In this document: piece by piece, positions 1,874-20,173 of the stretch | Numbering within the stretch: the first letter of the stretch is position 1 | How the letters are laid out: the number at the start of each line of letters is the position of its first letter | The notes under the pieces: model-generated | The model's database searches: none | The model's input: only the letters and a program-made list of their open reading frames with translations | Told to the model about the DNA's origin: nothing | From: an uncultured Chloroflexia bacterium | Lineage (GTDB): Bacteria; Chloroflexota; Limnocylindria; Limnocylindrales; CSP1-4 | DNA: 64,000 nucleotides | Reading direction: 5' to 3' | Assembly: GCA_963712745.1 (NCBI GenBank) | Contig: CAVQJC010000004.1 | Location: forward strand, 160,001 to 224,000 | Program-made: the position numbers and the translations under genes

Positions 1874-1913
1874 ACCCGCAACGCCGTGGGCCGGCATGCC
1901 ATGGGCACGGTAT

Positions 1914-1927
1914 TTGAACGGGTTCCA
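1914..1927. promoter_or_regulatory. LacI-type operator-like palindrome overlapping a putative promoter
   Basis: TTGAACGGGTTCCA (GAAC-GG-GTTC), followed by a TATCAT -10-like box upstream of the ABC ATPase. Confidence 0.4.
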
Positions 1928-2000
1928 CCGATGCGTATCATGGGCACGATCGCCGGTCGGAGGCGGTCGGCACCGGCAGCACCACCGGGAGGCAACACTC

Positions 2001-2810
2001 ATGACCGAAGACTCGTCCACGAACCCGAGGCCAGAGGGTACGACCCCGCTCGTGGAGATGCGGGACATCAAGGTCGCCTTTGGCGGCGTGCACGCGGTGG
2101 ATGGCGTCAGCATCGACCTCTACCCAGGAGAGGTCGTCGGTCTGGTCGGCGGCAATGGTGCCGGCAAGTCGACGCTGATGCGCGTACTGTCCGGCGCGCA
2201 CCCGGCTGACTCCGGCCAGATCTTCGTGGACGGCAAGCTCGCGCACATCCACGCGCCTCTCGATGCCCAACGGCTCGGCATCGAGACGATCTACCAGACG
2301 CTGGCGCTGGCCGACAACCAGAACGCACCGGCCAACATGTTCCTCGGCCGGGAGATGACGAGCCGCACGGGTGCGCTCGATGACAAGGCGATGGAGAACG
2401 CTAGCCGGGACGTCATGGGTCGGCTGAACCCGAACTTCACCAACTTCAAGCAGCCGGTGAAGTCCCTCTCCGGTGGACAGCGACAGGCCGTGGCCATCGC
2501 CCGAGCCGTCCACTTCCAGGCCCGGGCGCTCATCATGGACGAGCCCACGGCCGCGCTGGGTCCGGCCGAGACGACGCAGGTGCGTGATCTCGTGAAGCAG
2601 CTCAAGAACGAAGGAATCGGCATCTTTCTCATCAGCCATGACATCCATGACGTCTTCGACCTCTCCGATCGCATCAGCGTCATGTATCACGGCGAGATCG
2701 TGGGCACGGTCAGGCACGATGCGGTCACCCCTGATGACGTCTTGGGCATGATCATCCTGGGCAAGCAACCGGAGTCGGTGACAAGTGAGGAGCGCGCGGC
2801 CCTCTACTAG
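2001..2810 (+). CDS. Sugar ABC transporter ATP-binding protein (single NBD)
   Basis: Walker [14 protein letters not shown] signature, Walker B IMDE, H-loop ISH; GGGAGG RBS before ATG 2001. Confidence 0.92.
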
Positions 2811-3004
2811 GGAGATGTCCGTGGCTTCGTCGTGCGACGTCACTACACGAGGGCCGGGATCGCCCACCGAGGCGCTGCGGAATCCATTGACTCCTCGACC
2901 AGACTTCAGCTAGCGTAATGCGTGCGCGCCAGACTCATGGACTGATCTTGCGCCAGAAGGTAGGCGCAGGTCCACGGGGCGTTGCGAAGCAGGAGGAGCA
3001 CCAG

Positions 3005-3964
3005 ATGCGACAACGCCCGTTCGGCCGCTTGATCGGATCATTCGCGGCCACGGCACTACTAGTCGGGTCCCTGGGCGGAGGAGTAGCAGCCCAAGACGAC
3101 GGGATCGAGATCGGCGTCACGTTCCCGATCCTCGACCAGTTCCTCCAGACGGTCGCGACCGGCATGGAGAACAAGGCGGAGGAGATCGGCGGCGTCAGCC
3201 TCAACATCGTCGAGGCCCAGGAAGACGTCACCACGCAGCTGGGCCAGGTCGAGAACTTCATCACCAACGAGGTTGATGCCATCCTCGTCATCCCGGTCGA
3301 CACCGATGCTGCGGCTCCGATGACGGAGGCGGCAATGGCGGCTGGGATTCCGCTGGTATATGTCAACCGGCGGCCGTCCGACCTGCCCACCGACGGGTCC
3401 GTCCCGTATGTCGGGTCCGATTCGCTCTACGCGGGCACGGTGGAGATGGAGATGCTCGCGGAGCTCGCCGGGAACGAGGGCAACGTGGTCATCCTCATCG
3501 GCGACCCGGCCAACGAGGCTGCGGTCCTGCGCACCCAGGGCTGCAAGGATGTGGTCGACCAGCACGAGGGGCTGGTCGTCACCAAGGAGCAGGCCGGCAA
3601 CTGGTATCGCGAAGAAGGCCTGAACATCATGGAGAACTGGATCCAGTCGGGAGACCAGATCGACATCGTCTGCGCCAACAACGATGAGATGGCGCTGGGC
3701 GCGATCGAGGCGCTGCGCAACGCGAACCTTCTCGACGATGTCATCGTCGGTGGCGTCGACGCTACCGCCGATGCGCTCGCGGCGATGGAGGCCGGCGATC
3801 TCGAGGTCACCGTCTTCCAGAACGCCGACGGCCAGGGCGGTGGCGGCGTCGAGGCCGCGGTGGCTCTGATCAACGGCGAGCCCGTCCCCAACATGGACGA
3901 GATGGGCATCGTGGATGTCCCCTACGAGCCCGTCAGCCCGGAGAACATGGCCGACTACCAGTAG
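3005..3964 (+). CDS. Sugar (inositol/ribose-type) ABC substrate-binding protein
   Basis: Signal peptide, VNR, YVGSD and ANNDEMALGA motifs of the Peripla_BP_4 family; AGGAGG RBS. Confidence 0.9.
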   Translation: MRQRPFGRLIGSFAATALLVGSLGGGVAAQDDGIEIGVTFPILDQFLQTVATGMENKAEEIGGVSLNIVEAQEDVTTQLGQVENFITNEVDAILVIPVDTDAAAPMTEAAMAAGIPLVYVNRRPSDLPTDGSVPYVGSDSLYAGTVEMEMLAELAGNEGNVVILIGDPANEAAVLRTQGCKDVVDQHEGLVVTKEQAGNWYREEGLNIMENWIQSGDQIDIVCANNDEMALGAIEALRNANLLDDVIVGGVDATADALAAMEAGDLEVTVFQNADGQGGGGVEAAVALINGEPVPNMDEMGIVDVPYEPVSPENMADYQ

Positions 3965-4024
3965 TAGAAACCGTCGCTGCAGGGAGCCGAAGGTCGGTCC
4001 CTGCGGCCATAGCTACGTCAGCGA

Positions 4025-4052
4025 TCGGAGGCCCGCGTGTGCGGGCCTCCGA
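4025..4052 (+). terminator. 12-bp perfect stem-loop between SBP and permease (mRNA-stabilising or attenuating hairpin)
   Basis: TCGGAGGCCCGC-gtgt-GCGGGCCTCCGA; no U tract. Confidence 0.55.
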
Positions 4053-4183
4053 GTCACATGAAGACCCAGAAACAGACCCGGCGCTTGATCTTCGGATTCG
4101 AGATCGGAGTGCGTTATCGGGCACCAGCCGGGTCATGCTGACGACAGCGAGGGAGGCAGTGTCAGCACGAGGGAGGCAGGGGA

Positions 4184-5185
4184 GTGACCACACCGGGCGT
4201 GACTGATACGTTGAGCTTCAGGGCCGGCGAGTTCTTCCGCAAGTACCTCATCGTCTTCATCCTCATCGGCTTGGTAGCGTTGCTCTCCGTCTTGACCGAT
4301 GGGACGTTCCTGAAGCCACAGAACCTCATCAACGTGACCCGGCAGGTCTCGGTCATCGCCATCCTCGGCATCGGCCTGACCGTGGTCATCATCTCCACCG
4401 GCATCGACCTGTCGGTCGGTTCGGTCGTGGCCCTTTCGGCGGTGGTCGCGACGAGCCTCGCGCAGCTGCCCGAGGCAACGAACCTCATGTATCCGGGCTT
4501 GGATGTGCCCGTGTTCGTGGCGGTCGGCGCAGGCCTGTTGGTGGGTGTCGGAGTCGGAGCCATCAACGGCACGCTCGTCGCGTACTTCCGCCTGGCTCCC
4601 TTCATCGCCACGCTGGGCATGATGACGGCGGCGCGCGGCGTTGCGCTCATCTACAGCAACGGACGTCCGGTCAGCCGGCTCGATCCTGACTACAACTGGT
4701 TCGGACAGGGTGAACCCTTCGGCATCCCGGTCCCCATCATCCTGCTCGTCATCGTGGCCATAGCCGTTCAGTACCTGCTGACACGCCGCAAGTTCGGTCG
4801 CTACGTCTACTCCATCGGCAGCAACGAGGAAGCTGTCCAGCTCGCCGGCATCAAGATCAAGCGGGTGAAGATGTGGATCTACATCCTCTCGGGCCTGCTG
4901 GCCGGGCTAGGCGGCATCATCCTGTCGGGGCGCATCGGTTCCGGCAACCCGACGCTCGCCACCGGCATCGAGCTTCAAGCCATCGCGGCAGCCGTCATCG
5001 GAGGGGCCAGCCTGGCCGGCGGCATCGGCACTGTCTGGGGAGCCATCATCGGCGCCATGATCATCGGCTCGCTGAGTACTGGCCTGGACCTGCTCAACGT
5101 CTCGCCATTCTCCCAGATGGTCGTGCAGGGCCTGATCATCATTGCCGCCATCATCATCGACGAGCGCAAGAACCGAGGGAAATGA
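4184..5185 (+). CDS. Sugar ABC transporter permease (RbsC/BPD_transp_2)
   Basis: GIDLSVGS, PFIATLG, G.NEEA..AGI and ELQAIAAAVIGG motifs; many TM helices. Confidence 0.93.
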   Translation: MTTPGVTDTLSFRAGEFFRKYLIVFILIGLVALLSVLTDGTFLKPQNLINVTRQVSVIAILGIGLTVVIISTGIDLSVGSVVALSAVVATSLAQLPEATNLMYPGLDVPVFVAVGAGLLVGVGVGAINGTLVAYFRLAPFIATLGMMTAARGVALIYSNGRPVSRLDPDYNWFGQGEPFGIPVPIILLVIVAIAVQYLLTRRKFGRYVYSIGSNEEAVQLAGIKIKRVKMWIYILSGLLAGLGGIILSGRIGSGNPTLATGIELQAIAAAVIGGASLAGGIGTVWGAIIGAMIIGSLSTGLDLLNVSPFSQMVVQGLIIIAAIIIDERKNRGK

Positions 5186-5355: not shown

Positions 5356-6282
5356 GTGAACCAGCACGTTGACTATCCACAACTCCGCCTCGGCACGGCC
5401 CCCGACTCGTGGGGCGTCTGGTTCCCTGATGACCCGAAGCAGACGCCCTGGTCCCGCTATCTCGACGAAGTGCGCGACGCCGGCTACAAGTGGACCGAGC
5501 TCGGCCCCTTCGGCTATCTGCCGACGGACCCCGTGCGGCTACGGGACGAGCTTGACGCCCGTGGGCTTAGCCTCACCGGCGGCACCGTGTTCGTGGCGCT
5601 GCACAAGGGAAAGGACGCGCTTGAGCAGGCGAAGGCGGACTGTGACGCCGAGATGGCAACCATCCGGCCGCTTGGAGCGCGACACCTAGTCATCTTGCCG
5701 GAGGGCTACACCGACCTCGACGGCAGGGTCACTGCCTCGCCCACGCTGACCGCGGGCGAGTGGGACTCGCTGCTCACGGGTATGAGCGAGTTGGGGGTGT
5801 ACGTGGCTGACAAGCACGGCGCCGTGCTCACCTTCCATACCCACGCGGACAGCCATGTCGGCACGCAGGAGGAGATCGAACGCTTCCTCGATGGCACCGA
5901 TCCCCAGACCGTGCAACTTTGCCTCGATACCGGCCACGTCACCTACTGCGGTGCCGACAACCTCAAGCTCATCCGCGACTACCCCGAGCGCATCGCCTAC
6001 GTGCACCTGAAGCAGGTGGACGTGGCCGTGCGCGCGCGGGTGCGGGAGGAGAACCTCGGTTTCGCACCTGCCGTGCGCCTTGGCGTCATGGTAGAACCGC
6101 CACTCGGCGAACCCGACATGCCCGAGCTTCTGGCCGCGCTCGGCGCACTCGATCGCGAGCTCTACTGCATCGTCGAGCAGGACCTGTACCCCTGCGCACC
6201 CGACGTCCCGCTCCCGATCGCGGTGCGTACAGAGGAGTACTTCAAGACCTGTGGCCTGGGGGCCGGGCGCCCGCGCGACTGA
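5356..6282 (+). CDS. iolE: IolE-like 2-keto-myo-inositol dehydratase / sugar-phosphate isomerase (TIM barrel)
   Basis: APDSWGVWF, ELGPFGYLP, CLDTGH, VHLKQ and VEQD motifs; iol cluster context. Confidence 0.75.
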   Translation: MNQHVDYPQLRLGTAPDSWGVWFPDDPKQTPWSRYLDEVRDAGYKWTELGPFGYLPTDPVRLRDELDARGLSLTGGTVFVALHKGKDALEQAKADCDAEMATIRPLGARHLVILPEGYTDLDGRVTASPTLTAGEWDSLLTGMSELGVYVADKHGAVLTFHTHADSHVGTQEEIERFLDGTDPQTVQLCLDTGHVTYCGADNLKLIRDYPERIAYVHLKQVDVAVRARVREENLGFAPAVRLGVMVEPPLGEPDMPELLAALGALDRELYCIVEQDLYPCAPDVPLPIAVRTEEYFKTCGLGAGRPRD

Positions 6283-6325
6283 CCGAGCGGATCGCGACAT
6301 CTCATCACAGCAGAGGGGTTCCACC

Positions 6326-7333
6326 ATGACCATCCGGGTAGGCATCATCGGGACAGGCCTCATCGGCGAGGACCACGGCCGGAGGCTGGCTGGCGTCATC
6401 CGCGGCTCGAGCGTGAGCGCAGTCACGGACATCAGGCGAGAGCGGGCGGAAGAAGTCGCCGAGACGCTCGGCGGAGCGCGCGTGTTCGACACGGGCTTCG
6501 ACCTGATCGCGAGCGACGAGGTCGACGCCGTGCTCGTCGCCTCCATCGGGGAGACCCATGCCGACTACGTGCTCGCCTGCATCGGCGCGGGCAAACCGGT
6601 CATGTGCGAGAAGCCGCTCGCACCGACGGTGCCCGAGTGCGAGCGGATCATCGAAGCGGAGGTCGCATTCGGGCAGCGGCTCGTCATCGTCGGCTACATG
6701 CGTCGCTATGACGCCGGCTATCGGCAGGTCAAAGCCTCGCTTGAGGAAGGCACGATCGGTGACCCGCTGATCCTGCATAACATCCACCGCAACTCGGTCG
6801 TCCCCGAGACCTACACCAGCTTCATGACCATGACCGACTCGATGATCCACGAGGTAGACGTGAGCCGCTGGCTCCTCGATGAGGAGATCACGGCGGTCCA
6901 GGTCATCCCGCCAAAGCGGACGCCCAAGGCCTTCCCGCATCTCCAGGACCCTCAGTTCGCCGTGTTCACGACCGAGACCGGAATCCTCTCGACCGTGGAG
7001 TTCTTTGCCAACTGCCAGTACGGCTATGACGTCCGCTGCGAAGTGGTCGGTTCGATGGGGACGGCTTCGCTCGTGAACCCGGCGCTGGCCTCCGAGATTG
7101 CCGCCGGGCACGCGACGGAAGTCATCCCCGCAGACTGGCGCGGGCGGTTCGGCGCCGCCTATACCGCCGAGATCCAGGCGTGGATCTCCGGTCTCGAGCG
7201 AGGCGCGTGCGTCGGTCCCAGCGCCTGGGAGGGTTATGCCGCCACCAAGGTCGTCGAGGTCGGCGTCGAGGCGGTCAAGAGTGGCGAGCGCGTGACCATC
7301 GAATACATGGACAAGCCGGCACTCTATCGGTAG
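6326..7333 (+). CDS. iolG: Inositol 2-dehydrogenase (Gfo/Idh/MocA)
   Basis: GIIGTGLIG, CEKP, GYMRRYD, DSMIHE and YGYDVRCE, typical of IolG. Confidence 0.85.
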   Translation: MTIRVGIIGTGLIGEDHGRRLAGVIRGSSVSAVTDIRRERAEEVAETLGGARVFDTGFDLIASDEVDAVLVASIGETHADYVLACIGAGKPVMCEKPLAPTVPECERIIEAEVAFGQRLVIVGYMRRYDAGYRQVKASLEEGTIGDPLILHNIHRNSVVPETYTSFMTMTDSMIHEVDVSRWLLDEEITAVQVIPPKRTPKAFPHLQDPQFAVFTTETGILSTVEFFANCQYGYDVRCEVVGSMGTASLVNPALASEIAAGHATEVIPADWRGRFGAAYTAEIQAWISGLERGACVGPSAWEGYAATKVVEVGVEAVKSGERVTIEYMDKPALYR

Positions 7334-7373: not shown

Positions 7374-8240
7374 GTGAAAGTCACACTCGACCCTTACATG
7401 TTCCGCGAGGTACCCCTGACCAAGCTGCCTCGGCTGGTGGCTGACCTTGGCTATCGCCATATCGAGCTCTCTCCGCGTGAGGACTTCATCCCGTTCTACC
7501 GCCATCCACGGGTGGACACCGCCACCATCAAGGCCTTCCGACGGGCGCTCGAGGAAGCCTCGGTCGAAGTCGTCTCGCTGCTGCCGCTCTTTCGCTGGTC
7601 GGGCCCTGACGAGGACGAGCGGCAGGCAGCGGTCCGCTACTGGAAGCGCTCGATCGAGATCGCAGCCGAGCTGGGTGTGGACGTCATGAACTCCGAGTTC
7701 AACGGCCGACCGGAGAACCCGTCTATCTCGGAGGCGCAGTTCTGGAAGTCGATGGAGGAGTTGCTCCCCATCTTCGAGCGGGAAGGTATCCACCTGGCCC
7801 TGGAGCCGCATCCCGACGATTTCATCGAGGACGGTCTGGCGGCGGTCGACATGATTCGTGGCATCGACTCCCCGAGTGTCAGCTTCCTGTATTGCGCGCC
7901 GCACACGTTCCACCAGGGTGGGAATGTGGCTGAGATCATGCGTTCGGCTGGGGACCTGCTCACGCAGGTGCACGTCGCCGACTGCTGGGATCACCGGGCC
8001 TCATCGGGGTTGCGCTACATCACGAACCCGCCAGGCAACGCGGTGCGGGTGCACCAGCACCTTGACATCGGCCAGGGCGAGGTTCCGTGGGACACCTTCT
8101 TCGGCACGCTCGAAGAACTGCGTTTCGACGGCATCATGACCGTGTGCGTCTTCGCCTGGGAGGAACGGGCCGCGGAGTCGAGTCGGCACAACCTCGCGGA
8201 GATCGAGCGGCGAATCGCTGGCTGGCAGCATCTCGCCTAG
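7374..8240 (+). CDS. iolH: IolH-like sugar-phosphate isomerase/epimerase
   Basis: LDPYM, IELSPREDFIPF, EPHPDDF, HQHLDIGQGEVPW and CVFAWEE motifs. Confidence 0.8.
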   Translation: MKVTLDPYMFREVPLTKLPRLVADLGYRHIELSPREDFIPFYRHPRVDTATIKAFRRALEEASVEVVSLLPLFRWSGPDEDERQAAVRYWKRSIEIAAELGVDVMNSEFNGRPENPSISEAQFWKSMEELLPIFEREGIHLALEPHPDDFIEDGLAAVDMIRGIDSPSVSFLYCAPHTFHQGGNVAEIMRSAGDLLTQVHVADCWDHRASSGLRYITNPPGNAVRVHQHLDIGQGEVPWDTFFGTLEELRFDGIMTVCVFAWEERAAESSRHNLAEIERRIAGWQHLA

Positions 8241-8339: not shown

Positions 8340-9656
8340 CTACTGGCGCACCATACGGTCAGCGATCTCCGCCCATTCCCAAAGACGCCGGGGGTCGCGA
8401 CGGCAGGTGCTGATGTCCTTGAGCGTGAACTCCACCGGACATCCGTTTGCTTTCGTCACCTCGAGCACTTCGCGGAAGTCCTTCTCCGCGAGCTCGGGAA
8501 CCCACTCGTCCATCGCGACAAGGGCCGGGTTCGGCTTGCGACTGAAGACGAAGTCGGAGCCGATCGACTCGGCCCCCTTGGCGATGTCGGCCCATGGGCT
8601 CATCGAGATCTTGCGGATATTCGGGATCTCGCGGATGCGGTCGACCCTCTTGCCGAGTGGCTCACAGCAGCCGTAGTACCCGAGACCGAAGCGGCCGTAG
8701 TAGCGGATCGCGCCGGGGATCTCCATCTCGGCCCACATCTCATCTGAAACCGAGACGAACAGCTGGGCCATGCCGTAGACCCAGTTGTCGACCGCCCGTG
8801 GCTTGGCGATGTCGAAATCCGTCTGCGGCAGCTCATCAGTGTGTGCGCCACAGCAGTGGATCCGGTCCAGACCCCAGCCCAGCAGTCCCTTCTCTTCGAG
8901 GAGGTCGAGCTCGGCGAGGCGGACGTCAGTCATGCGCTCGGCGATCCTGAGCAGGAAGTCCGGGCGGTCGATGAGGTCGTAGAGGATCCTCTCGGTGCCG
9001 CGCAGCTGCTCGATGTCATCCCACATCGAGAACCACGGTGAGAGGCCCTGCATGCGGACGTCGAGGATGCCGTCGAGCAGCTCGTGTGCGCGAACCTCGA
9101 CCTTCTCGGTCGCCTCGGCCTCCAGCTCGATCTCGGGCACGGTGAGCTTCGCGAGCGCTTCGTCATCCGGGATCTGGTCGCTGAAGTGATGTGAACTGAT
9201 GGCCTCGCCCTCACCCTGGCTGATGGTGTCCTCGACGACCGAGACCCCGAAGCCCGAGTGGTAGATGACCTTGCTGATGTCGACGTACGGTTCGACCACC
9301 ATGTCGCAGCGCATGTGCTCCCACTGGTAGAGCGTCTGGCGCAGCGTCGTCTCGAGGCTCCGTGCGAAGAGGTCGGTACATCGGTTCTGCAGTGCCGGGT
9401 CGTCCCTCAACTCGTGCCAGGGGACCTCGTCGATCTGGACCATGGGCCGCTGTGGGCGCAGCGCATTGAGGTCCTTCCAGGCCTGGATCGTGTCTTGCTG
9501 GACAGGCAGTGCGGCGATTTCAGCGACCCTGGCGGCCAGCTCGCGAACGACCGCGACGTCCTCAGCCGGGGGCGGCGAGTCGAGGTCGTCGTAACGTATC
9601 CATGGGGTACCGCTGGCGTAGGTTGGAGGCATGACCCAGGGTGTCTTCTCTGTCAT
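8340..9656 (-). CDS. UroD/MtaA-superfamily (methylcobalamin-dependent methyltransferase-like) protein
   Basis: LRG.E..LYDL.DRP, Cys-rich HCCG and YGCCEP putative Zn ligands, KISMSPW; directly downstream of a corrinoid protein. Confidence 0.6.
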   Translation of the reverse strand: MTEKTPWVMPPTYASGTPWIRYDDLDSPPPAEDVAVVRELAARVAEIAALPVQQDTIQAWKDLNALRPQRPMVQIDEVPWHELRDDPALQNRCTDLFARSLETTLRQTLYQWEHMRCDMVVEPYVDISKVIYHSGFGVSVVEDTISQGEGEAISSHHFSDQIPDDEALAKLTVPEIELEAEATEKVEVRAHELLDGILDVRMQGLSPWFSMWDDIEQLRGTERILYDLIDRPDFLLRIAERMTDVRLAELDLLEEKGLLGWGLDRIHCCGAHTDELPQTDFDIAKPRAVDNWVYGMAQLFVSVSDEMWAEMEIPGAIRYYGRFGLGYYGCCEPLGKRVDRIREIPNIRKISMSPWADIAKGAESIGSDFVFSRKPNPALVAMDEWVPELAEKDFREVLEVTKANGCPVEFTLKDISTCRRDPRRLWEWAEIADRMVRQ

Positions 9657-9726
9657 CGGATCCTCCTCGCTCGGCGTGTTGCGGTTGGTGTGCCCCGGCG
9701 CCTGTGGCGATCCAGGTCAGGCCCCG

Positions 9727-10353
9727 CTAGGAAGCCAACAGCTCGCGGGCCAGGTCGACAGCGGCACCAGCGTCCGGGGCGAAGCCGTCGGCACCGATCT
9801 GCTCGGCGAGCTCCGGGGTAACGGGCGCCCCGCCGACGACGACACTGGTCGGGAGGTCGGCCGCGCGGACGGCCTCGACCACACCACGCATGTTGGGCAT
9901 CGTCGTGGTCAGCAGGGCGCTGACCCCGATGAGGTGGGCGTCGTGCTCACGCGCGGCGTCGACGAACCTAGCAGCCGGGACGTTGACGCCGAGGTCGATG
10001 ACCTCGAAGCCGCCGCCCTTCCACATCATGCCGACAAGATTCTTGCCTATGTCGTGGAGGTCACCTTCGACCGTACCCACGACCGCACGATACTCGGGCT
10101 TCACCCCGCTCTCAGCCAGGATCGGCTCGAGGATCTCGGTGCCGGCCTTCATGGCACGCGCGGCGACCATCATCTCTGGAACGAAGCACTCGCCCGTCTG
10201 GAACTTCCTGCCAACGACGTCCATAGCGGCGACCATCGCGTCGAGTACGCTCTTGGCATCAACGCCCCCGTCGAGCGCCGCACGTGTCGCGTTCGCGGCT
10301 CCCGTACGGTCACCTGACTCGACAGCGGCGGCGAGGATGGCAAGGTCGGTCAT
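9727..10353 (-). CDS. Methyltransferase corrinoid (B12-binding) protein, MtaC/MttC-like
   Basis: GDLHDIGKNLV (DxHxxG), SALLTTT and VGGAP motifs; N-terminal helical cap; AGGAGG RBS. Confidence 0.93.
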   Translation of the reverse strand: MTDLAILAAAVESGDRTGAANATRAALDGGVDAKSVLDAMVAAMDVVGRKFQTGECFVPEMMVAARAMKAGTEILEPILAESGVKPEYRAVVGTVEGDLHDIGKNLVGMMWKGGGFEVIDLGVNVPAARFVDAAREHDAHLIGVSALLTTTMPNMRGVVEAVRAADLPTSVVVGGAPVTPELAEQIGADGFAPDAGAAVDLARELLAS

Positions 10354-10507
10354 GGTGTGATCCTCCTTTGAGGGACTTGGGTCGTGATGGTGCCTGCTGA
10401 CCGCATCTGCCGCGTCGTTGCGATCGTAGCGATGTTCGGCTTGGGAGGACCGGCGACAAAGGGCCCGTGGTCACCAAGAAGCGAGACAGACTGCTCCCTC
10501 CCGGACG

Positions 10508-11512
10508 TCATCGACCGGGCACCTCGGAGAGATCGACGACCCGTCCCTCGCGCGCTGAGAGCGCCAGTGCCGACGCGAGTCGCAGCGCCTCGACCCCGTC
10601 GCGAGCTGTGCACGGGCTGACCCGCTCTCCGCGAGCGACGTCGACGAAGGCGATCAGTTCGTCTTGGTAGCCCTGTGCCCAGCGGTCAAGGAAGTCACGC
10701 CACGGCGGTCCGCCCGATGGCGACGCGGCCGTCTCCAGCGAGCGCAACGGTGTGCGGGGGCCAAGACCGACGGCCACGCTGTCACGCGACCCGAAGATCT
10801 CGGTGCGTACGTCGTGGCCCAGCGGGTCGTGGCGTGCCCAGGTTGCCGTCACTGGCGTGCCGTCAGCGAGCTTGATCACGGCCACGGCGTTGGCGTAGTC
10901 CTGGTACGTCTCGTACAGCGGAAAGCCTCGAGCGTTGCCGAGGCAGTAGACCTCCTCAGCCTCCAGCGCAGTGAGAAAACGCAGGGCGTCGAGGTCGTGG
11001 GTGGATTGATCGCGGAACATCCCCCCGGACGAGGCGACGTACGCCTCGGATGCGGGCGCTGGATCGTGGCAGCGCATCGAGATCGAATGGATGTCGCCGA
11101 TCTCGCCGCTCTCCACGAGCCTGCGCGCCTCCACATGCGCCGGGTCGAAGCGACGTTGGAACCCCAGGTGGAAGGGAACGGCGCTCGCCTCGACATCGAG
11201 CATGACCGCGATCGACTCCTCCAGCGAGGCCGCTAGTGGCTTCTCGCAGAACGTCGGGAGCTTGCGCTCGATCGCCGCCCGGATAAGCGCCGCATGGTCG
11301 GTGGTGGAAGCGGCGATGACCACCGCGTCGGCCTGCTCCATGGCCGCATCCACGGCCCCGACGTGCTCGAGCCCGAGCTCGGCTGCGACGTCAGCCGCGC
11401 GCTGGGGCACGAGGTCGGTGATGCTGACGCTCTCGATGGCTGCCGAGGAGAGCAGCGTGCGCGCATGCAGTGGACCGATCCTGCCGGCACCGAAGATCGC
11501 CACTCGCATCAC
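10508..11512 (-). CDS. Second Gfo/Idh/MocA inositol dehydrogenase-like oxidoreductase
   Basis: FGAGRIG, CEKP, GFQRRFD and SGGMFRD..THD motifs. Confidence 0.85.
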   Translation of the reverse strand: MMRVAIFGAGRIGPLHARTLLSSAAIESVSITDLVPQRAADVAAELGLEHVGAVDAAMEQADAVVIAASTTDHAALIRAAIERKLPTFCEKPLAASLEESIAVMLDVEASAVPFHLGFQRRFDPAHVEARRLVESGEIGDIHSISMRCHDPAPASEAYVASSGGMFRDQSTHDLDALRFLTALEAEEVYCLGNARGFPLYETYQDYANAVAVIKLADGTPVTATWARHDPLGHDVRTEIFGSRDSVAVGLGPRTPLRSLETAASPSGGPPWRDFLDRWAQGYQDELIAFVDVARGERVSPCTARDGVEALRLASALALSAREGRVVDLSEVPGR

Positions 11513-11583: not shown

Positions 11584-12645
11584 TCACGACCGGCGGTCCG
11601 CCCGAGGCGGTGCGGTCGACTCCCGGGCGACGAGCTCGACGGGCAGCCGACGGGTCTCGCCCGACGCCCGGTCCGCGGTGCTGGCCGCTGGCTCCCGCCC
11701 GGCCGCGATCCGCTCGTACAGGCTCTCCACGGCCCAGCGGCCCATCTCCGTCGTGGCTTGGCGGATGGTTGTCAGGGCCGGATACATATAGGCCGCGATC
11801 TCTATGTCGTCGAAGCCCATGACGCTGACGTCGTGGGGCACCTCCCGGCCCTCTGCACGGAGGCCGCGGATGGCGCCGACGGCGGTGAGGTCGTTGTAGC
11901 AGAGCAGCGCGGTCGTCCCCGGGTGCAGCTCCATCGCCCGATGGGCCGCACCAGAGCCGCCTTCCGCGCCAGCCTCTGCCGCGATGACCGCAAGCGGTCG
12001 TTGCACACCCAGCCGGCGCAACCCGGCTACGGCACCCTCAAGACGCTCCGCAGCGGCACGGTTGTCCTCGCTCGGAGCGGTGATGTAGACCAGGTGCTCA
12101 TGCCCAAGAGCGAGGAGATGTCCGACGGCGATGCGCCCGCCTTCCACGTTGTCTGAGACGACTGCTGGGACGGCAGCCAAGGTCGACTCACTGTTGACGA
12201 TGACGACGGGGCAGGGGAGTTCGCGGATGCGTTCGCGGTGGCGAGCGCTGAGCTCTGAACTGGCGATGATGAGCCCATCGACTTCCCGCTCGGCGAGCAG
12301 ATCCAATGACTCGAGTTCGCGCTCCGGATCGCGGCGCCCATCGGCCAGCAGCACGGAGTGCCCACGCTCGCGAGCCGCGTCCTCGATGGCCCTGACGATC
12401 TGAGGGAAGTAGGGGTTCTCGATGTCCGTGACGATGAGACCGATGGTGCGGGTGCTGCGCAGCTTCAGCGAACGGGCCACGCCCGACGGCCGATAGCGCA
12501 GGGCGTTCGCTGCCTCTTCCACTCGCGCCCGGGTTGCCGGGTCGACGTTGGCGCTGCGGCGCAGGGTGCGACTGACCGTGGCGGTCGAAACGTCCGCGAG
12601 CGCAGCCACCTCACGGATCGTGGCAGCCTTTCCCTCTCGTACCAT
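11584..12645 (-). CDS. LacI-family transcriptional regulator (probable iol repressor)
   Basis: TIREVAALADVSTATVSR HTH; GFDD and LTTIRQ in the sensor domain. Confidence 0.93.
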   Translation of the reverse strand: MVREGKAATIREVAALADVSTATVSRTLRRSANVDPATRARVEEAANALRYRPSGVARSLKLRSTRTIGLIVTDIENPYFPQIVRAIEDAARERGHSVLLADGRRDPERELESLDLLAEREVDGLIIASSELSARHRERIRELPCPVVIVNSESTLAAVPAVVSDNVEGGRIAVGHLLALGHEHLVYITAPSEDNRAAAERLEGAVAGLRRLGVQRPLAVIAAEAGAEGGSGAAHRAMELHPGTTALLCYNDLTAVGAIRGLRAEGREVPHDVSVMGFDDIEIAAYMYPALTTIRQATTEMGRWAVESLYERIAAGREPAASTADRASGETRRLPVELVARESTAPPRADRRS

Positions 12646-12691: not shown

Positions 12692-12794
12692 CTCGTTCGA
12701 CGTATGATGACCCTACGGCGCTCGTGTTGTCACGTGCACCGTGCCGATATGCGCTCTTTGGCGATCACACGGCAGGACAGAGCGGAGTGGGTCG

Positions 12795-13616
12795 TTGAGC
12801 GAACGCCTTCACCTCAAAGCAGGGGACCCAGCGAACGGGCCGGTGCATGCCATCACGCCCGAGGTCGCCGGCTGGCAGTTCGTCAGCTTCTTCGATCACC
12901 GGCTCGGCGCAGGTGGGACGGTCCATCGCCCCGCGGCGGACGTGGAGCGAGCGGTCGTCGTCCTCGAGGGGAGCGCCACGGTGCGCGCTGGCAGCGACCG
13001 TTGGAGCTCGCTCGGGAGCCGTCAGAGCGTCTTCGACGGCCCGGCGCCGCCGGTCCTACTGCTGGAACCGGGCCTCGACCTGGCCGTCGAGGCTGAGCAG
13101 CCAACGAGCCTCATCGTGGCCGAGGCGCCCGCCGCCGAGGTCCGGCGCACACGGCTCTTCGAACCGGCGGACATCTTCGTGGAGACCCGCGGCTCGGGTA
13201 TCACCGAGCGGACGATCCACCATCTGCTGCCGCCGTCGGTAGAGGCTGGCCGGCTCATCCTCTTCGAGGTCTTCACCCCCGGCGGCAACTGGTCGAGCTA
13301 TCCGCCGCACAAGCATGACACCGAGGACCCGCCGCGCGAGGCCTATCTCGAGGAGCTCTACTACTACCGCTTCAAGCGCCCCGAGGGCTGGGGCTTCGCT
13401 CGCGTCTACACCCCGGACCGATCGCTCGACGTCTCGTTCGCGCCCACCGACAGCGACGTCGTACTGGTGCCGCGCGGCTACCATCCCTTCGGCGCTCCCG
13501 CAGGCTATGACGCGTACTACCTCAACGTGATGGCCGGCCATCACCGTGCCTGGCACTTCACGGTCGACCCCGACCACGCCTGGTTGATGGACTGGGACCC
13601 GAACCTGCCCAGATGA
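12795..13616 (+). CDS. iolB: 5-deoxy-glucuronate isomerase
   Basis: GNWSSYPPHKHD, LEELYYY, PRGYHP and YYLNVMAG signatures. Confidence 0.93.
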   Translation: MSERLHLKAGDPANGPVHAITPEVAGWQFVSFFDHRLGAGGTVHRPAADVERAVVVLEGSATVRAGSDRWSSLGSRQSVFDGPAPPVLLLEPGLDLAVEAEQPTSLIVAEAPAAEVRRTRLFEPADIFVETRGSGITERTIHHLLPPSVEAGRLILFEVFTPGGNWSSYPPHKHDTEDPPREAYLEELYYYRFKRPEGWGFARVYTPDRSLDVSFAPTDSDVVLVPRGYHPFGAPAGYDAYYLNVMAGHHRAWHFTVDPDHAWLMDWDPNLPR

Positions 13617-13635
13617 CACCCCAAGGAGAGCACCC

Positions 13636-14718
13636 ATGACGACGCCCACCCCGCTGCAGCGCACCGCGAGCGAGTTCCCGACCGATTACTGGAACGACTC
13701 GTGCAACGAGAGCGAGCTCCGCTACGCCATGGAGAACGGCGCAGTGGGCGCGACCACCAACCCCACCATCGTGGGCACGGTGATGCAGCAGGAGTACGAC
13801 ATCTGGGCTCCCCGAGTAAGGGAGATCGCCGCGCAGAACCCGACCTGGACCGACCAGCAGGTCACCTGGCAGGTCATCGAGGAGATGGCCATCCGCGGCT
13901 GGAAGATGCTCGAGCCGATCTGGAAAGCCAATCACGGCCAGAAGGGGCGTCTCTCCATCCAGATCGACCCGACGCTCAACCGCTCCGTCGACAAGATGGT
14001 CGAGCAGGCGCGCCACTTCGACACCCTCGCGCCCAACGTGCAGATCAAGTTCCCGGCCGTCAAGGCGGGCATCGAGGCCATGGAGCTCGTGACCGAAGAA
14101 GGCCTCAACATCAACGCCACGGTCTCGTTCACCGTGGCCCAGGCACTGGCAGTCGGCGAGGCCATGGAGCGAGCCCTGGCCAAGCGCGAGGCGGCAGGCC
14201 ACGACACATCGTGGATGGCACCGGTGTGCACCATCATGATCGGCCGCACCGACGACTGGGTGAAGGTCTACAACAAGCGCGAGGGCATCACGGTCGACCC
14301 GGCCGCTCCGGACTGGGCCGGCATCGCCGTGTTCAAGCGGGCGGCAGCCATCTTCCGCGAGCGCGGCTATCGCACGCGACTGCTGGCGGCCGCCTACCGG
14401 CATCACCTGCACTGGTCGGAACTCATCGGCGGCGATGTCTCGATGACCATCCCCTACGGCTGGCAGCGTCTGTTCAACGACTCTGCGGTGGAGGTCACTG
14501 ACCGCTGGGAGGACCCCGTGCCCGAAGCCTACGTGCGGGAGCTCAGCGAGCGCTGCCCGGAGTTCGTCAAGGCCTATGAACCCGAGGGGCTGGCTGTCGA
14601 CGAGTTCGCAGCCTACGGCGCGACAGCGCGCACGCTGCGTTCGTTCGTGTCGTCCTACTGGGAGCTGGTGGGAACCATCGACGACCTCCTCATCCCCGAC
14701 CCGGACGTCAAGTCCTAG
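13636..14718 (+). CDS. Transaldolase-family protein (atypical active site)
   Basis: WNDS, ATTNPTI, Schiff-base Lys in IKFPA, INATVSF. Confidence 0.85.
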   Translation: MTTPTPLQRTASEFPTDYWNDSCNESELRYAMENGAVGATTNPTIVGTVMQQEYDIWAPRVREIAAQNPTWTDQQVTWQVIEEMAIRGWKMLEPIWKANHGQKGRLSIQIDPTLNRSVDKMVEQARHFDTLAPNVQIKFPAVKAGIEAMELVTEEGLNINATVSFTVAQALAVGEAMERALAKREAAGHDTSWMAPVCTIMIGRTDDWVKVYNKREGITVDPAAPDWAGIAVFKRAAAIFRERGYRTRLLAAAYRHHLHWSELIGGDVSMTIPYGWQRLFNDSAVEVTDRWEDPVPEAYVRELSERCPEFVKAYEPEGLAVDEFAAYGATARTLRSFVSSYWELVGTIDDLLIPDPDVKS

Positions 14719-14769
14719 CCACCCCCATCAGACACGCGGCGGACAAGGAACAAGCGAGGAGGTAGCGAC

Positions 14770-16641
14770 ATGCCACGAGCGACCGTTGCCCAGGCCATCG
14801 TGACCTGGCTGGCCAACCAGTACGTCGAGCGCGACGGCGAGCGAGGGCGTTTCTTCGAGGGTGTCTTCGGCATCTTCGGTCACGGCATCGTGGCTGGCCT
14901 GGGCGAAGCCCTCGAGGCAGCCCAGGACGACGTGCGCTACTACCAGGCCCGCAACGAGCAGGCCATGGTGCACACCGCCGCCGCCTACGCCAAGCAGTCG
15001 AAGCGACTGCGCACGTTCGCCTGCACCACCTCGATCGGACCGGGCGCGACCAACCTCGCCACCGGGGCGGCCAACGCCACGGTCAACCGTTTGCCGGTGC
15101 TGCTGCTGCCCGGCGACCGCTTCGCCACGCGCCGGGTCAAGCCGGTGCTGCAACAGCTCGAACGCCCTGAGGTGGGCGACGTCAGCGCCAATGACGTGCT
15201 CCGCCCGGTCTCGCGCTATTTCGATCGCATCGAGCGCCCCGAGATGCTCATCGATGCCCTGCCCCAGGCCATGCGGGTGCTGACCTCGCCGGCCGAGACC
15301 GGTGCCGTCACCCTGGCCTTGCCGCAGGATGTGCAGGCCGAGGCCTGGGACTGGCCCGAACGGCTGCTGGAGCCGCGTGTCTGGGCCATCCCGCGGCCCC
15401 GACCCGACGCCGATCTCGTGGCTGCCGCGGCCGACCTCATCGCCACTGCCGAGCGGCCGATGATCGTGGTCGGGGGCGGGGTCGTCTACAGCGACGCGGC
15501 CGACGCCCTCGATGGCCTCGCGAGCCGTTTCGACATCCCGTTCACCGAGACCCAGGCAGGTAAGGGCGCGCTGCGCTGGGATCACCCCATGAACCTGGGC
15601 CCCATCGGCTCCACGGGCGGCAGCGCCGGCAACGCGGTCGCCCACGACGCCGACGTGGTCATCGCCATCGGCACTCGACTGTCCGACTTCCCGACCATGA
15701 GCTGGTCGGCCTGGCAGGACCCGGGCGTCCGCTTCGTGGCCATCAACGTGGCCGAGTTCGACGCGCACAAGGCCGCGGCGCTTCCGCTCGTGGGCGACGC
15801 CAGAGCTGCCATCCTCGAACTCCACGCCGCTCTCGACGCCCGCGGCTGGTTGGGAGCCGCTCCCGAGCGCCGTGAGCGTCTCGATCGGCTCCGCCGTGAG
15901 TGGCACGACGAGGTCGACCGCGTGCGCCATCTCGCGGCGGACATACACGTCTCCCAGCCGGAGGCCATCCGGCTCGTGAACGAGGCCCTCGGCGACGACG
16001 GCATCGTGGTCTGTGCGGCCGGCGGCCTGCCCGGCGACATGTACAAGCTGTGGCGTCCGGAGACCCCCGGCAGCTACCACATGGAGTACGGCAACTCGAC
16101 CATGGGCTATGAGATCGCCGGTGGCCTCGGCGTGGCCATGGCCGAGCCCGCCCGGCGAGTGCACGTGATGGTCGGCGATGGCTCATACCTGATGCTCTCG
16201 AGCGAGATCCTCACCGCGCGCCAGGAAGGTGTGGCGCTCACCATCGTGCTGCTCGACAACCACGGCTATCGCTGCATCCGCAACCTGTCGGGCGCCTGCG
16301 GTGGCGAGAACCCCTTCAACGACTTCCGCGCCCGTGACCCGCAGACCGGCACCTTCACCGGCGAAGTGCTGCCCATCGACTTCGCGGCCAACGCGGCCAG
16401 CCTGGGAGCGGTGGTCTTCAGCGCGGCCACCCCCGCAGAGCTGGAGGCGGCCCTGCGCGCGGCCCGGGCGGTCACCGACGGACCGGCGGTCATCGTCGTC
16501 GAGACGAACCCTGAGCCGGGGGTGCCGGCCTACGACAGCTGGTGGGACGTGCCCGTGGCGGAGGTCTCGACGTCCAAGCGTGTGCGCAAGGCGCGCACGG
16601 AGTACGAAGCCAACCTGGCCAGAGAGCGCACGTTCGTATAG
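14770..16641 (+). CDS. iolD: THcHDO hydrolase (decyclizing), TPP-dependent
   Basis: GIFGHG, NEQAMVH, AAGGLPGD, YHMEYG.S.MGYE, GDGSY and SWWDVPV motifs. Confidence 0.95.
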   Translation: MPRATVAQAIVTWLANQYVERDGERGRFFEGVFGIFGHGIVAGLGEALEAAQDDVRYYQARNEQAMVHTAAAYAKQSKRLRTFACTTSIGPGATNLATGAANATVNRLPVLLLPGDRFATRRVKPVLQQLERPEVGDVSANDVLRPVSRYFDRIERPEMLIDALPQAMRVLTSPAETGAVTLALPQDVQAEAWDWPERLLEPRVWAIPRPRPDADLVAAAADLIATAERPMIVVGGGVVYSDAADALDGLASRFDIPFTETQAGKGALRWDHPMNLGPIGSTGGSAGNAVAHDADVVIAIGTRLSDFPTMSWSAWQDPGVRFVAINVAEFDAHKAAALPLVGDARAAILELHAALDARGWLGAAPERRERLDRLRREWHDEVDRVRHLAADIHVSQPEAIRLVNEALGDDGIVVCAAGGLPGDMYKLWRPETPGSYHMEYGNSTMGYEIAGGLGVAMAEPARRVHVMVGDGSYLMLSSEILTARQEGVALTIVLLDNHGYRCIRNLSGACGGENPFNDFRARDPQTGTFTGEVLPIDFAANAASLGAVVFSAATPAELEAALRAARAVTDGPAVIVVETNPEPGVPAYDSWWDVPVAEVSTSKRVRKARTEYEANLARERTFV

Positions 16642-16674
16642 GAAGGGCGAGCCGGTGATAGGGAGGGGGAGCCG

Positions 16675-17614
16675 ATCGATCTCGAACGACAAAGGGGCCA
16701 TCAAGGTCGCCGCTGCCCCGGTGTCCTGGGGCGTCTTCGAGCAGACCGAAGGTGACCCGCTGCAGTTGGAGCCGGAGCAGATGCTCGACCAGATGGCCGC
16801 GGCCGGCTATGCCGGGACCGAGCTGGGCCCGCCCGGCTACTTCGGCGACGCGGCGGAGCTCAAGGAGCGACTCGGCACGCGCGCACTCTCGCTGGTGGGC
16901 GCGTTCATGCCGCAACGGTTCAGCCGTGCGGAACACGCCCCGGCGGACCGCGACGCGATGATCGGCATCCTCGAGCTCATGGCCGAGGGACGCCCCGATG
17001 GCGTCATGCCCAAGGCCATCCTGGCGGACGCCTCGCTCGAGCCCGAGCGCATGCGCTGGGCGGGGACGATCCCCGAGCATCCCGAGGCGGCGCTGACGCC
17101 TCAGCGTTTCAGGCTGCTCATCGACAATCTCCATCGGGCTGGCGAGGCGTGCCGAGAGCGCGGCTTCGACCCCGTCCTCCATTTCCACGCGGCCAGCTAC
17201 ATCGAGTCGACCGCAGAGATCCACCAGGTCTTCGATGCGCTCGACACATCGCTCGTGGGCATGTGCCTCGACACCGGGCACGCCCTCTTCGGCGGTGCCG
17301 ACCCACTCGCCTTGCTGAACGACTACTTCGACATCGTCCGGCACGTCCACATCAAGGACTGTGATCTGGCCGTCCTCAACGAGGTGAGTCAGTCCGGCGG
17401 CGGCATGATGGAGGCTTGGGACCGCGGGGTCTTCTGCGAACTGGGGCTGGGCACGGCGGGTCTGGACGGGTTCCTCGATGCGCTGAAGGAACGTCGCTGG
17501 GAAGGCTGGATGGTCGTCGAGCAGGACCGCTTCCTCAAGCCCGATGACACGCCTGAGGCGCTGCTTGAGCTGCACACGCGCAACCGGGAGTGGCTGGCCG
17601 AGCGCGGTCTCTAG
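16675..17614 (+). CDS. Second IolE-like TIM-barrel protein; start codon appears disrupted by +1 C (alternative GTG at 16655)
   Basis: APVSWGV, ELGPPG, CLDTGH, HIKD and VEQD motifs; strong RBS at 16661-16670 precedes AT[C]G-ATC. Confidence 0.75.
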
Positions 17615-17674: not shown

Positions 17675-18640
17675 TTATTCGGCGAGGCTCGCGAGGAACT
17701 CGCTGGCTACGACGTCGATGTCCTCCTTGTCCACGGAGATGCGCACGCCGAGCTGGGTGAGCACCTCGGTCGTTAGCGCCTCGGAGACGGGGTCGAGGAT
17801 GGCTGCCACCGCGTCGGCACCGCCGTCGACCAGCTCGAGCACGTCGTTCCTGACGATGGGTACGATGTTGCCGCGAGGCTGGGTCTCGAGGTCGTCCGCG
17901 AGCACGACCCAGCCGTTCAGGGCGATGACCGGTTGCGTGGAGCACAGCCAGGCGACGTCGACGGCGCCGCCCTCGAGCGCGCCGGCCATGACGGGGCCAC
18001 AAGGCGCGATCAGATCGAGCTGGGCCGGCGGCCAGGCGATACCGTAGGCCTCCTCCAGCGCGATGCGACAGGCGGGGTTCGTCTCACAGTCCGGCGGCAG
18101 GCCGAAGCGCAGGCTCTGCTGGGCTGCGGCCAGGTCGCTCATGGCCGAGAGGTCGTACTCGTCGGCCGTCTCGGCGCGCACCACGGCGGCATTGGTGTCT
18201 TCGCCCGCCGTGGGCGCCAGGATGGTGGCACCCACGCCTCGCAGGTCGTAGACCTGCTGCAGGCTCGTGGCGTCAGTCTCGGTATTGCCACTCGACTCGA
18301 TGGCCGCGATGGCCTCGGCAGCGTCGGGAGCGCCGGTGTAGTACTCCAGGCCGAAGCCGACGTACTCGGGCATGAGGTTGATCTGGCCCGAGTCGAAGGC
18401 CGCTTCTCGGACCGGGCGGTCGCCCATGGCCAATCCGGCACGGTCGACGCTGAAGCCTCCGGCCTCGAGTGCCTGCGCATACAGTTCGCCCATCAGCTCC
18501 GCCTCAGCGAAGCCCTGGGTTCCGACGATGAAGACCGGGTCCTCCTGAGCGCTCACGATCGCGCCCCCACCCGCCGTTCCAGCGATCGCGAGCGATGCCA
18601 GGAGCGACGCCCCGAGGGCGAGTCTGCGGGTACTCCGCAT
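17675..18640 (-). CDS. Osmoprotectant (glycine betaine/choline) ABC substrate-binding protein
   Basis: VG...F.E.ELMGELYAQALEA and PEY motifs; signal peptide; operon context. Confidence 0.8.
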   Translation of the reverse strand: MRSTRRLALGASLLASLAIAGTAGGGAIVSAQEDPVFIVGTQGFAEAELMGELYAQALEAGGFSVDRAGLAMGDRPVREAAFDSGQINLMPEYVGFGLEYYTGAPDAAEAIAAIESSGNTETDATSLQQVYDLRGVGATILAPTAGEDTNAAVVRAETADEYDLSAMSDLAAAQQSLRFGLPPDCETNPACRIALEEAYGIAWPPAQLDLIAPCGPVMAGALEGGAVDVAWLCSTQPVIALNGWVVLADDLETQPRGNIVPIVRNDVLELVDGGADAVAAILDPVSEALTTEVLTQLGVRISVDKEDIDVVASEFLASLAE

Positions 18641-19503: not shown

Positions 19504-19507
19504 GGCC

Positions 19508-20170: not shown

Positions 20171-20173
20171 GAC

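Follow-up and report, generated by a model that had tools for sequence, protein, structure and literature searches.

The closest described counterparts of the gene pair considered here are the three-component corrinoid O-demethylases, represented by MtvABC of Moorella, MtoABCD of Methermicoccus, and the O-demethylases of Acetobacterium and Desulfitobacterium; in these systems a DxHxxG corrinoid carrier protein (CP) adjoins a substrate:corrinoid methyltransferase (MT1) of the UroD superfamily, a pterin-binding methyltransferase (MT2) passes the methyl group to folate, and an ATP-dependent activase of the RACo/RamA type is present. According to one account, their substrates are aryl methyl ethers, and MtvB and MtaA/CmuA (MT1 and MT2 enzymes) are handled as one related group (PMC8630106). 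A similar pair occurs within an inositol catabolic (iol) locus of an uncultured Chloroflexia bacterium of the Limnocylindrales (GenBank assembly GCA_963712745.1, contig CAVQJC010000004.1). The window, a stretch of 64,000 nucleotides of this contig (positions 160,001 to 224,000), encodes on its minus strand the 438-amino acid protein X438 (8340-9656), a member of an unannotated UroD-fold family and the proposed MT1, and a corrinoid carrier protein of 208 amino acids (9727-10353). We put the chances at about even that X438 and its carrier constitute the substrate-specific half (MT1 and CP) of a three-component, oxygen-independent corrinoid demethylase that serves the inositol catabolic locus, with a methylated cyclitol as its presumed substrate. 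All four parts of the known systems have counterparts in the window's genome, and related loci contain the MT1-CP-MT2 order; the differences are the cyclitol/sugar context, the position of X438 beyond PF01208 detection, and the location of the MT2 and activase genes on a separate contig. The corrinoid O-demethylase architecture is known; the MT1 family, the putative substrate class and the embedding in an iol locus are new.

Demethylation of a methylated cyclitol is also a function of the rhizobial moc genes for rhizopine (3-O-methyl-scyllo-inosamine), where it is carried out by the oxygen-dependent, Rieske-type oxygenase MocDEF. The moc system shares with the present locus a periplasmic binding protein, a GFO/IDH/MocA dehydrogenase, and IolE-like TIM barrels; it differs in its Rieske-type oxygen dependence, whereas a B12 route without oxygen is proposed here. 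To our knowledge, the known carbohydrate and rhizopine demethylations all require oxygen. According to its description, a cytochrome P450 that demethylates 6-O-methyl-D-galactose is an oxygen-dependent monooxygenase with release of formaldehyde; it likewise takes a methyl ether off a carbohydrate so that catabolism can proceed, but no methyl group is transferred to a cofactor (PMC6292453). The mlp gene clusters were considered as a further relative and set aside; they concern methyl-sulfur and methyl-selenide metabolism (PMC10418091). An earlier note on this DNA, made from its letters alone, had not recognized a corrinoid route for methyl-inositols as described; this impression held in a literature search that found no paper tying methyl-inositols to corrinoid or cobalamin enzymes, most subscription journals and supplements lying outside its coverage.

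The family libraries do not recognize X438. Pfam returned no match at E ≤ 0.001 and one chance-level match at E ≤ 10, with PF01208 not detected; the NCBIfam search was empty, as were sequence searches of the PDB with the protein itself (phmmer) and with a 38-sequence profile, so that its likeness to UroD and MtaA is invisible at this level. The AlphaFold2 model built from the 38-sequence alignment (predicted local distance difference test score, pLDDT, 87.8; predicted template modeling score, pTM, 0.87) retrieved as top Foldseek matches the uroporphyrinogen decarboxylases and the Methanosarcina mazei methyltransferase 4ay7/4ay8 (E 5.8e-7). Structural alignment with VIA-align gave Z scores of 19.2 to 16.5 over 282-295 residues for these two groups, with true UroD at 19.2 and the MtaA-like 4ay7/4ay8 at 17.1 and 16.5; the next family, MetE, followed at 11.9. 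Profile alignment (hhalign) of the X438 family against 12 PF01208-positive paralogs reached 97.1% (E 6.6e-11, 206 columns). By profile and model, X438 is thus a deeply divergent protein of the UroD superfamily, yet no PF01208 member by Pfam's criterion.

The cysteine motifs of X438 are H267-C268-C269-G270 and Y328-G329-C330-C331-E332. The C330-C331 pair is invariant in all 79 rows of the family alignment, and H267 and C268 are almost invariant; position 269 is threonine in 19 of the 21 rows of the corrinoid-linked clade described below and in 50 of the 58 others, which makes HCTG commoner than HCCG. A further cysteine, C406, located 75 residues downstream of C331, is present in 21 of 21 clade rows and 40 of 58 other rows; D214 and C406 are invariant in the corrinoid-linked clade only. 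In the hhalign alignment, G329-C330-C331 falls on the H-x-C-G of the URO-D paralogs, with C331 at the cysteine, glycine in place of the histidine, and C330 as an extra residue. X438 is thus similar to the zinc methyltransferases MtaA, MtbA, and MtsA (4ay7/4ay8) in barrel fold, in the alignment of C331 with the H-x-C-G cysteine, and in having a corrinoid partner; unlike them, it has glycine for histidine, the additional invariant C330, approximately 90 more residues, and no sign of a thiol acceptor. The cysteine-rich, UroD/MtaA-like protein announced by the earlier note is therefore borne out in fold, in profile homology, and in the presence of both motifs, while the resemblance escapes the family libraries and HCCG is not a family feature.

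The family is large. More than 1303 homologs of X438 were found among 8000 candidates scored; among the best 120, none has a precomputed Pfam domain, and those with a name are labeled "hypothetical protein." The closest homologs come from metagenome-assembled genomes (MAGs) labeled Chloroflexota, Limnocylindrales, and Thermoanaerobaculales. When 1.84 billion cluster representatives were searched with a profile, 701 clusters (50% identity) passed E ≤ 1e-30 and 1774 clusters passed E ≤ 1e-10. One cluster representative of the family (P0151, 595 amino acids) carries a fused N-terminal NPCBM/NEW2 carbohydrate-binding module; longer fused forms (768-2190 amino acids) were sought and none was seen, which is weak evidence.

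The corrinoid carrier is the more conventional partner. It consists of an N-terminal helical cap (B12-binding_2, PF02607; 63.5 bits, cut-off 23) and a Rossmann domain (B12-binding, PF02310; 94.6 bits, cut-off 32.1), and its motif D98-L99-H100-D101-I102-G103 is invariant in 20 of 20 aligned homologs (numbering follows the translation; it is one lower in the homolog alignment and in the complex model). These domains and the motif confirm the DxHxxG corrinoid protein of the earlier note. The top NCBIfam matches all remain below their cut-offs, namely MtgC NF047996 with 176.3 bits (370), MtbC with 160.7 (350), and TIGR02370 with 154.3 (215.3); by sequence, the carrier can be placed with the general methyltransferase-cognate corrinoid type (MtaC/MtbC/MtgC/MtvC), outside every named substrate-specific subfamily.

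Complex modeling supports docking of X438 and this carrier. The predicted complex scored 0.74 (0.75, 0.73, and 0.74 in separate runs), compared to 0.00 for the best control, and passed a mark that 116 of 157 solved complexes attain, as do 2 of 215 mismatched pairs; contact agreement among the runs was at least 91%, and the pLDDT of the partner at least 84. On the carrier side, the modeled interface involves the B12 face and takes in the DxHxxG loop together with the S-x-L/TTT and GGAP stretches; on the X438 side, it comprises residues 155-157, 331, 355, 376-378, and 416-417, including H156, C331, and W355, in the region where the mouth of the barrel carries its invariant residues.

Gene neighborhoods were surveyed for the best 80 of 420 confirmed X438 loci in species-representative genomes (loci are cited by L numbers), using six-frame open reading frames (ORFs) with jackhmmer and tblastn, clustering of neighbor ORFs filtered by GC content at third codon positions (GC3), and Pfam searches on the representatives. 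In 21 of 80 loci, the X438 homolog has a corrinoid gene within approximately 1.5 kb on its own strand, upstream in 17, downstream in L068, L078, and L080, and as a partial copy at the contig end in L051; it is more distant in three other loci (L017, L035, L073). Of the 80 loci, 14 have genes of the iol pathway near the X438 homolog, and ten among the 14 contain the co-oriented order iolE-iolG1-TIM barrel-corrinoid-X438 (L006, L008, L009, L010, L011, L013, L015, L016, L018, L025), with the caveat that an iolE match is not listed for L010 and L018, and that the L010 contig starts just 5' of iolG1; the module genes of these loci are 66-82% identical to those of the window, excepting the TIM-barrel gene of L016 (41%). 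Other iol arrangements were found in L003, L012, L014, and L073. A Pterin_bind ORF follows 3' of the X438 homolog in L004 and L012 (4 bp each), L032 (67 bp), and L027 (874 bp), and the loci combining X438, corrinoid, and Pterin_bind genes can be read from their sequences as an MT1-CP-MT2 layout. Since L007 has one corrinoid gene followed by two tandem X438 homologs (8421-11251), and since a divergent URO-D gene comes after the X438-corrinoid genes in L068, L078, and L080, several barrel enzymes may use one carrier. An EamA-family transporter gene begins at -51 to +4 bp after the X438 homolog in L002, L009, L010, L013, and L015.

A FastTree phylogeny was calculated for 79 rows, made up of 76 locus ORFs with matches at more than 330 of 421 profile positions and of three copies that the window's genome contributes; ORFs that were shorter or frameshifted, among them those of L016 and L018, did not enter it. 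In this tree, all loci linked to corrinoid, iol, or MT2 genes fall into one 21-row clade with a support of 100, nested inside a 28-row clade with a support of 98. X438 is nearest to L001, with 81% identity, and to L002.

Neither an MT2 nor a reactivase is found among the called genes of the window, and the earlier note had accordingly expected them elsewhere; candidates for both are indeed encoded elsewhere in the window's genome (G000; 4.2 Mb, 20 contigs, 84.6% complete). Contig C11 harbors a RACo-type activase gene (C11:369088-371052) with Fer2, RACo_linker, Raco_middle, and RACo_C_ter domains (313.2 bits), and two MtrH-like pterin-binding MT2 genes (C11:378586-379623 and C11:373478-374110); the same cluster holds genes for a CooC-like ATPase, a DUF3786 protein, a CdhD-like protein, two MTHFR, FolD, and FTHFS. 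The MT2 proteins adjacent to X438 homologs in other genomes find their top match in this genome at C11:378592-379623, with 39-42% identity, and we infer that the C11 MT2 and the RACo activase are the cognate partners of the pair. The genome as a whole contains 7 small corrinoid-protein genes, MetH, 4 pterin-binding genes, approximately 22 URO-D matches, 1 MttB, and 4 X438-family genes (X438 and three paralogs); methyl-transfer genes are unusually numerous for a genome of 4.2 Mb. A glycyl-radical enzyme resembling PFL and a NiFe hydrogenase suggest an anaerobic or facultative lifestyle.

The C11 stretch from 369088 to 387348 (L101, L102) also contains, beside the RACo, MT2, MTHFR, FolD, and FTHFS genes, two URO-D genes, a corrinoid gene, a GFO/IDH/MocA gene, and a LacI gene, which may represent another sugar-type demethylase with its own one-carbon (C1) oxidation module. 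A recent duplication of the window's lacI-iolG2-corrinoid genes as the source of this LacI-GFO-corrinoid trio is ruled out by identities of 30%, 22%, and 57%. One paralog with 53% identity to X438 (C1:140491-141718) is split into two adjacent frames, covering residues 32-385 and 386-437, through either a frameshift or an error in the assembly; beside it lies a URO-D gene (C1:141819-142424).

The pair is located, as the earlier note had described and as the coordinates confirm, between an iolE-iolG-TIM barrel block on one side and a second dehydrogenase with a LacI regulator on the other, and it is co-oriented with the latter. The minus-strand operon begins with lacI (11584-12645; Pfam LacI and Peripla_BP), divergent from iolB, and continues with iolG2 (10508-11512), the gene of the carrier, and X438, the four being spaced by 71, 154, and 70 bp; a single sigma-70-like site precedes lacI at 12733-12704 on the minus strand, and both genes of the pair have strong Shine-Dalgarno sequences, in the case of X438 GAGGAGGA. 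The iolG2 product, with GFO_IDH_MocA domains, belongs to the inositol 2-dehydrogenase family (TIGR04380, 279.8 bits against a cut-off of 355). Orthologs of lacI (59-68%) occupy the matching place in genus relatives and are followed there by iolG2 orthologs (66-69%); iolG2 is native to the genus. A terminator scan between X438 and the convergent TIM-barrel gene found 0, with 1.0 expected.

The plus-strand block facing the pair starts with a CUT2-type sugar ATP-binding cassette (ABC) transporter (1896-5185), consisting by Pfam of an ATPase (1896-2810), a binding protein (2918-3964) with 4yo7 as its top PDB match (E 5e-67), and a permease (4184-5185); in L006, L011, L015, and L025, the operon is likewise preceded by this transporter. 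It is followed by a second iolE copy (5356-6282, plus strand), an AP_endonuc_2 TIM barrel with 152 bits to TIGR04379 against a cut-off of 290, which is 30% identical to the core IolE of the window and 30.5% to the core IolE of genus relatives. The next gene, iolG1 (6251-7333, plus strand; top PDB match 3mz0, E 2.3e-92; NF052679 370.6 bits against a cut-off of 540), resembles Bacillus subtilis IolG and by these matches would be a myo-/D-chiro-inositol dehydrogenase type. The last gene of the block encodes a xylose isomerase-like, "iolH-like" TIM barrel (7374-8240, plus strand; AP_endonuc_2, 167.7 bits) with weak similarity to IolO and TM0416, possibly an inosose isomerase or epimerase; orthologs with 79-82% identity lie immediately 5' of the corrinoid gene in L006, L008, L009, L010, L011, L013, L015, L018, and L025, and L016 has at the corresponding place the TIM gene with 41% identity mentioned above.

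The core iol operon (12741-17614, plus strand) contains iolB (12741-13616), a transaldolase-family gene (13636-14718), iolD (14770-16641), and the core iolE (16676-17611), in a gene order common to three genus relatives. IolB (TIGR04378, 288.1 bits; cut-off 205) and IolD (TIGR04377, 867.1 bits; cut-off 715) are equivalogs; the core iolE, located by tblastn, is 76% identical to the gene of genus relatives and scores 144 against the cut-off of 290 in the IolE equivalog model. A longer spurious ORF overlaps this gene, which is therefore easily overlooked in ORF lists. The transaldolase-family gene has counterparts with 84-85% identity at the equivalent place in the three genus relatives; since no IolC kinase or IolJ aldolase is found among the called genes of the window (the remainder of the genome was not searched for either), it may replace a later step of the iol pathway.

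The route that links these components is inferred in four respects: the direction in which the methyl group moves, the metal site of X438, the assignment of MT2 and activase to the pair, and, most of all, the identity of the substrate. The gene neighbors, and these only, point to an O-methyl-inositol, because the operon partners of the pair are an importer with a 4yo7-like binding protein, a B. subtilis-type IolG, and two inosose-type TIM barrels; of the demethylation of methyl-inositols suggested by the earlier note, the pair, its partners, and the iol-linked operons have materialized, and the substrate remains a reading of context. The ABC transporter of the module would import the methylated cyclitol. 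X438 would bind it, probably through a cysteine-rich metal site, and the Co(I) of the carrier would attack the methyl ether to yield methyl-Co(III) and free inositol. The methyl group would be passed to tetrahydrofolate by the pterin-binding MT2 at G000:C11:378586-379623, and the resulting methyl-tetrahydrofolate would either be oxidized by the MTHFR, FolD, and FTHFS encoded beside this MT2 or be consumed by MetH; carrier oxidized to Co(II) would be re-reduced by the RACo-type activase (C11:369088-371052). The free inositol would be oxidized by IolG1 or IolG2, possibly isomerized by the TIM barrel, and then processed by the core IolE, IolD, and IolB. D-pinitol, which is 3-O-methyl-D-chiro-inositol, would be the most economical guess as the substrate; ononitol, sequoyitol, quebrachitol, and bornesitol are equally allowed. 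Demethylation of D-pinitol would yield D-chiro-inositol, a compound that IolG-type enzymes oxidize, and the TIM barrel could isomerize the oxidation product toward the core pathway.

Several observations weigh against this assignment. The H-x-C residues are the zinc ligands in MtaA-type methyltransferases, and in X438 they have become G-C-C. Attack of Co(I) on an alkyl instead of an aryl methyl ether requires the departure of a poor leaving group, an alkoxide; the sole precedent for the alkyl case that we know of is the activation of methanol by MtaB. Since solved corrinoid-protein complexes exist, the score of the complex model may partly mirror likeness to known complexes. Contigs from RNA libraries that match parts of the locus are no proof of its transcription. 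D-pinitol is degraded by Erwinia and Serratia via iolT, iolG, and iolE, and in that study no demethylase was found necessary, so that the iol enzymes may handle the methyl ether unaided (PMC9788770).

The family survey adds to these objections. In the clade, 3 of the 21 rows (L003, L014, L073) have no corrinoid gene next to the X438 homolog, and none is seen in L032, where the homolog starts at the contig end. Beyond the clade, approximately 50 of the 79 family rows adjoin neither corrinoid nor iol genes; the neighbors of these orphans are mixed, and B12-binding domains occur in 0 of the 114 ORFs flanking them, compared to 4 with URO-D and 1 with Pterin_bind. The recurrent iol linkage for which the earlier note proposed a survey is real for 14 loci, including the ten full operons, and belongs to one clade; the bulk of the family does not share it. 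The orphan rows are 47-55% identical to X438 and originate from MAGs labeled Armatimonadota, Poribacteria, Planctomycetota, Latescibacterota, Spirochaetota, and Anaerolineae; their neighbors include GH127, GH123, GH9, NPCBM, CBM9, and sulfatase genes together with many unrelated ones, and in L059 an NPCBM protein adjoins the X438 homolog. Small corrinoid proteins are encoded elsewhere in 5 of 5 genomes of orphan members tested.

Absence of the pair from relatives, which the earlier note had named in advance as evidence against its proposal, was observed in part. A search of 24 genomes of the same genus yielded no X438 ortholog; the matches there are at most 40% identical and of the C11-paralog type, apart from one fragment with 58%; three genus relatives have a core locus of iolE-iolD-tal-iolB and lacI-iolG2-ABC-permease-binding protein, and lack the pair. 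In the window, the corrinoid and X438 genes follow iolG2 at the position of the transporter in these relatives, and a different block of transporter, second iolE, iolG1, and TIM barrel lies alongside. Within the genus, the TIM-barrel gene is present in 6 of 48 genomes, and iolB in 41 of 48. Because same-genus relatives lack the pair, it is probable, judging from these gene comparisons, that a native iol locus has acquired an accessory "upper pathway" module. In Chloroflexia MAG loci, the block and the pair form one co-oriented operon; since they are a single operon elsewhere and are found at an iol locus here, the module appears to stay together and to land at iol genes.

The most serious alternative, which we nevertheless regard as unlikely, accepts X438 and its carrier as a genuine corrinoid MT1/CP pair and assigns them another substrate, such as a methylated sugar, methanol, a methoxylated aromatic, or some other donor; in that case, the linkage to iol genes would stem from co-transfer or from a common regulation of carbohydrate genes. 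A genome with approximately 22 URO-D matches, 4 X438-family genes, 7 small corrinoid proteins, and 1 MttB appears to scavenge many methyl donors, and the clade members L004, L005, L007, and L027 are accompanied by sugar transporters, GFO oxidoreductases, or MT2 in the absence of clear iol genes. The glycoside hydrolases near members of the wider family and the NPCBM fusion fit this explanation as well as the preferred one, and neither the two iolE-like proteins nor the TIM barrel reach the equivalog cut-offs. The methylated cyclitol is preferred over these substrates because 10 independent species-level genomes hold the pair in a co-oriented operon with a B. subtilis-type IolG and two inosose-type TIM barrels, and because the window pair sits behind lacI and iolG2 of a bona fide iol locus.

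A considerably less probable explanation denies X438 the methyltransferase function; it would be a UroD-like decarboxylase or another barrel enzyme that acts on an inositol-derived intermediate, and the B12 protein would be a sensor, a regulator, or unrelated. The UroD structures do rank slightly above the MtaA-like ones (Z 19.2 against 17.1), the His of the MtaA H-x-C is missing, and most family members have no adjacent corrinoid gene. The carrier, however, has a methyltransferase-type cap, and its best families are MtgC, MtbC, and MtaC, not CarH; an MT2 gene follows the homolog in 4 loci, the B12 face of the carrier docks in the complex model at the mouth of the barrel, against the invariant C331 and H156, and all five orphan-member genomes tested encode small corrinoid proteins elsewhere. 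The synthetic direction, in which inositol would be methylated from methyl-tetrahydrofolate via the carrier to form a methyl-inositol osmolyte in an estuarine organism, agrees with the predominance of estuary and sediment among the metagenomes holding the stretch, and corrinoid methyl transfer is reversible in principle; it is highly improbable in view of the importer, the LacI repressor, and the catabolic iolE, iolD, and iolB in these operons, and of the MT2 in a methyl-oxidation cluster with MTHFR, FolD, and FTHFS. A carrier serving glycine betaine demethylation, suggested by MtgC as the top NCBIfam match, by OpuAC/betaine-type transporter genes at a distance of 7 kb, and by one MttB-family gene in the genome, is just as improbable, since the MtgC score of 176.3 bits is far under the cut-off of 370, the sole MttB gene resides on a different contig (C20:640045-641469), and the carrier accompanies X438 and iol genes across genomes.

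If the pair demethylates methylated cyclitols, several consequences would follow. Pinitol, ononitol, and quebrachitol rank with the most plentiful soluble carbohydrates of plants, and the way in which bacteria remove the methyl group from methyl-inositols is unsettled; the proposed route would explain their turnover in anoxic sediments and soils, and it would tie the decay of plant osmolytes to folate-bound C1 metabolism. Alkyl methyl ethers would become a new substrate class in corrinoid methyltransferase chemistry, and a family of several hundred clusters without library annotation would obtain a function. Somewhat doubtful, and put forward tentatively, is the wider proposition that X438 is the founding member of a large UroD-superfamily branch without annotation, consisting of the substrate-binding methyltransferases for B12-dependent, oxygen-free demethylation of alkyl methyl ethers on cyclitols and sugars; corrinoid O-demethylation would thereby reach beyond lignin-type aryl ethers to carbohydrates that bear methyl groups, and the methyl groups would feed the folate pool of sediment and soil bacteria among the Chloroflexota, Armatimonadota, Poribacteria, and Planctomycetota.

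A weak hint of transcription comes from RNA-library contigs of three runs, which are identical to parts of iolG1, the TIM-barrel gene, X438 (8488-8663), iolG2, and lacI; these contigs cover parts of the stretch only, and the gaps between them are uninformative on expression. Adjoining the iol locus on the minus strand, a glycine-betaine-type ABC transporter (17675-21418) comprises an OpuAC binding protein, two permeases, and an ATPase with a CBS domain. The remainder of the window, from 22 to 64 kb, carries housekeeping genes for FtsH, topoisomerase I, MurJ, a Mur ligase, and a DnaB-like helicase, and an IS110-family transposase gene is located at 40625-41791 on the minus strand.

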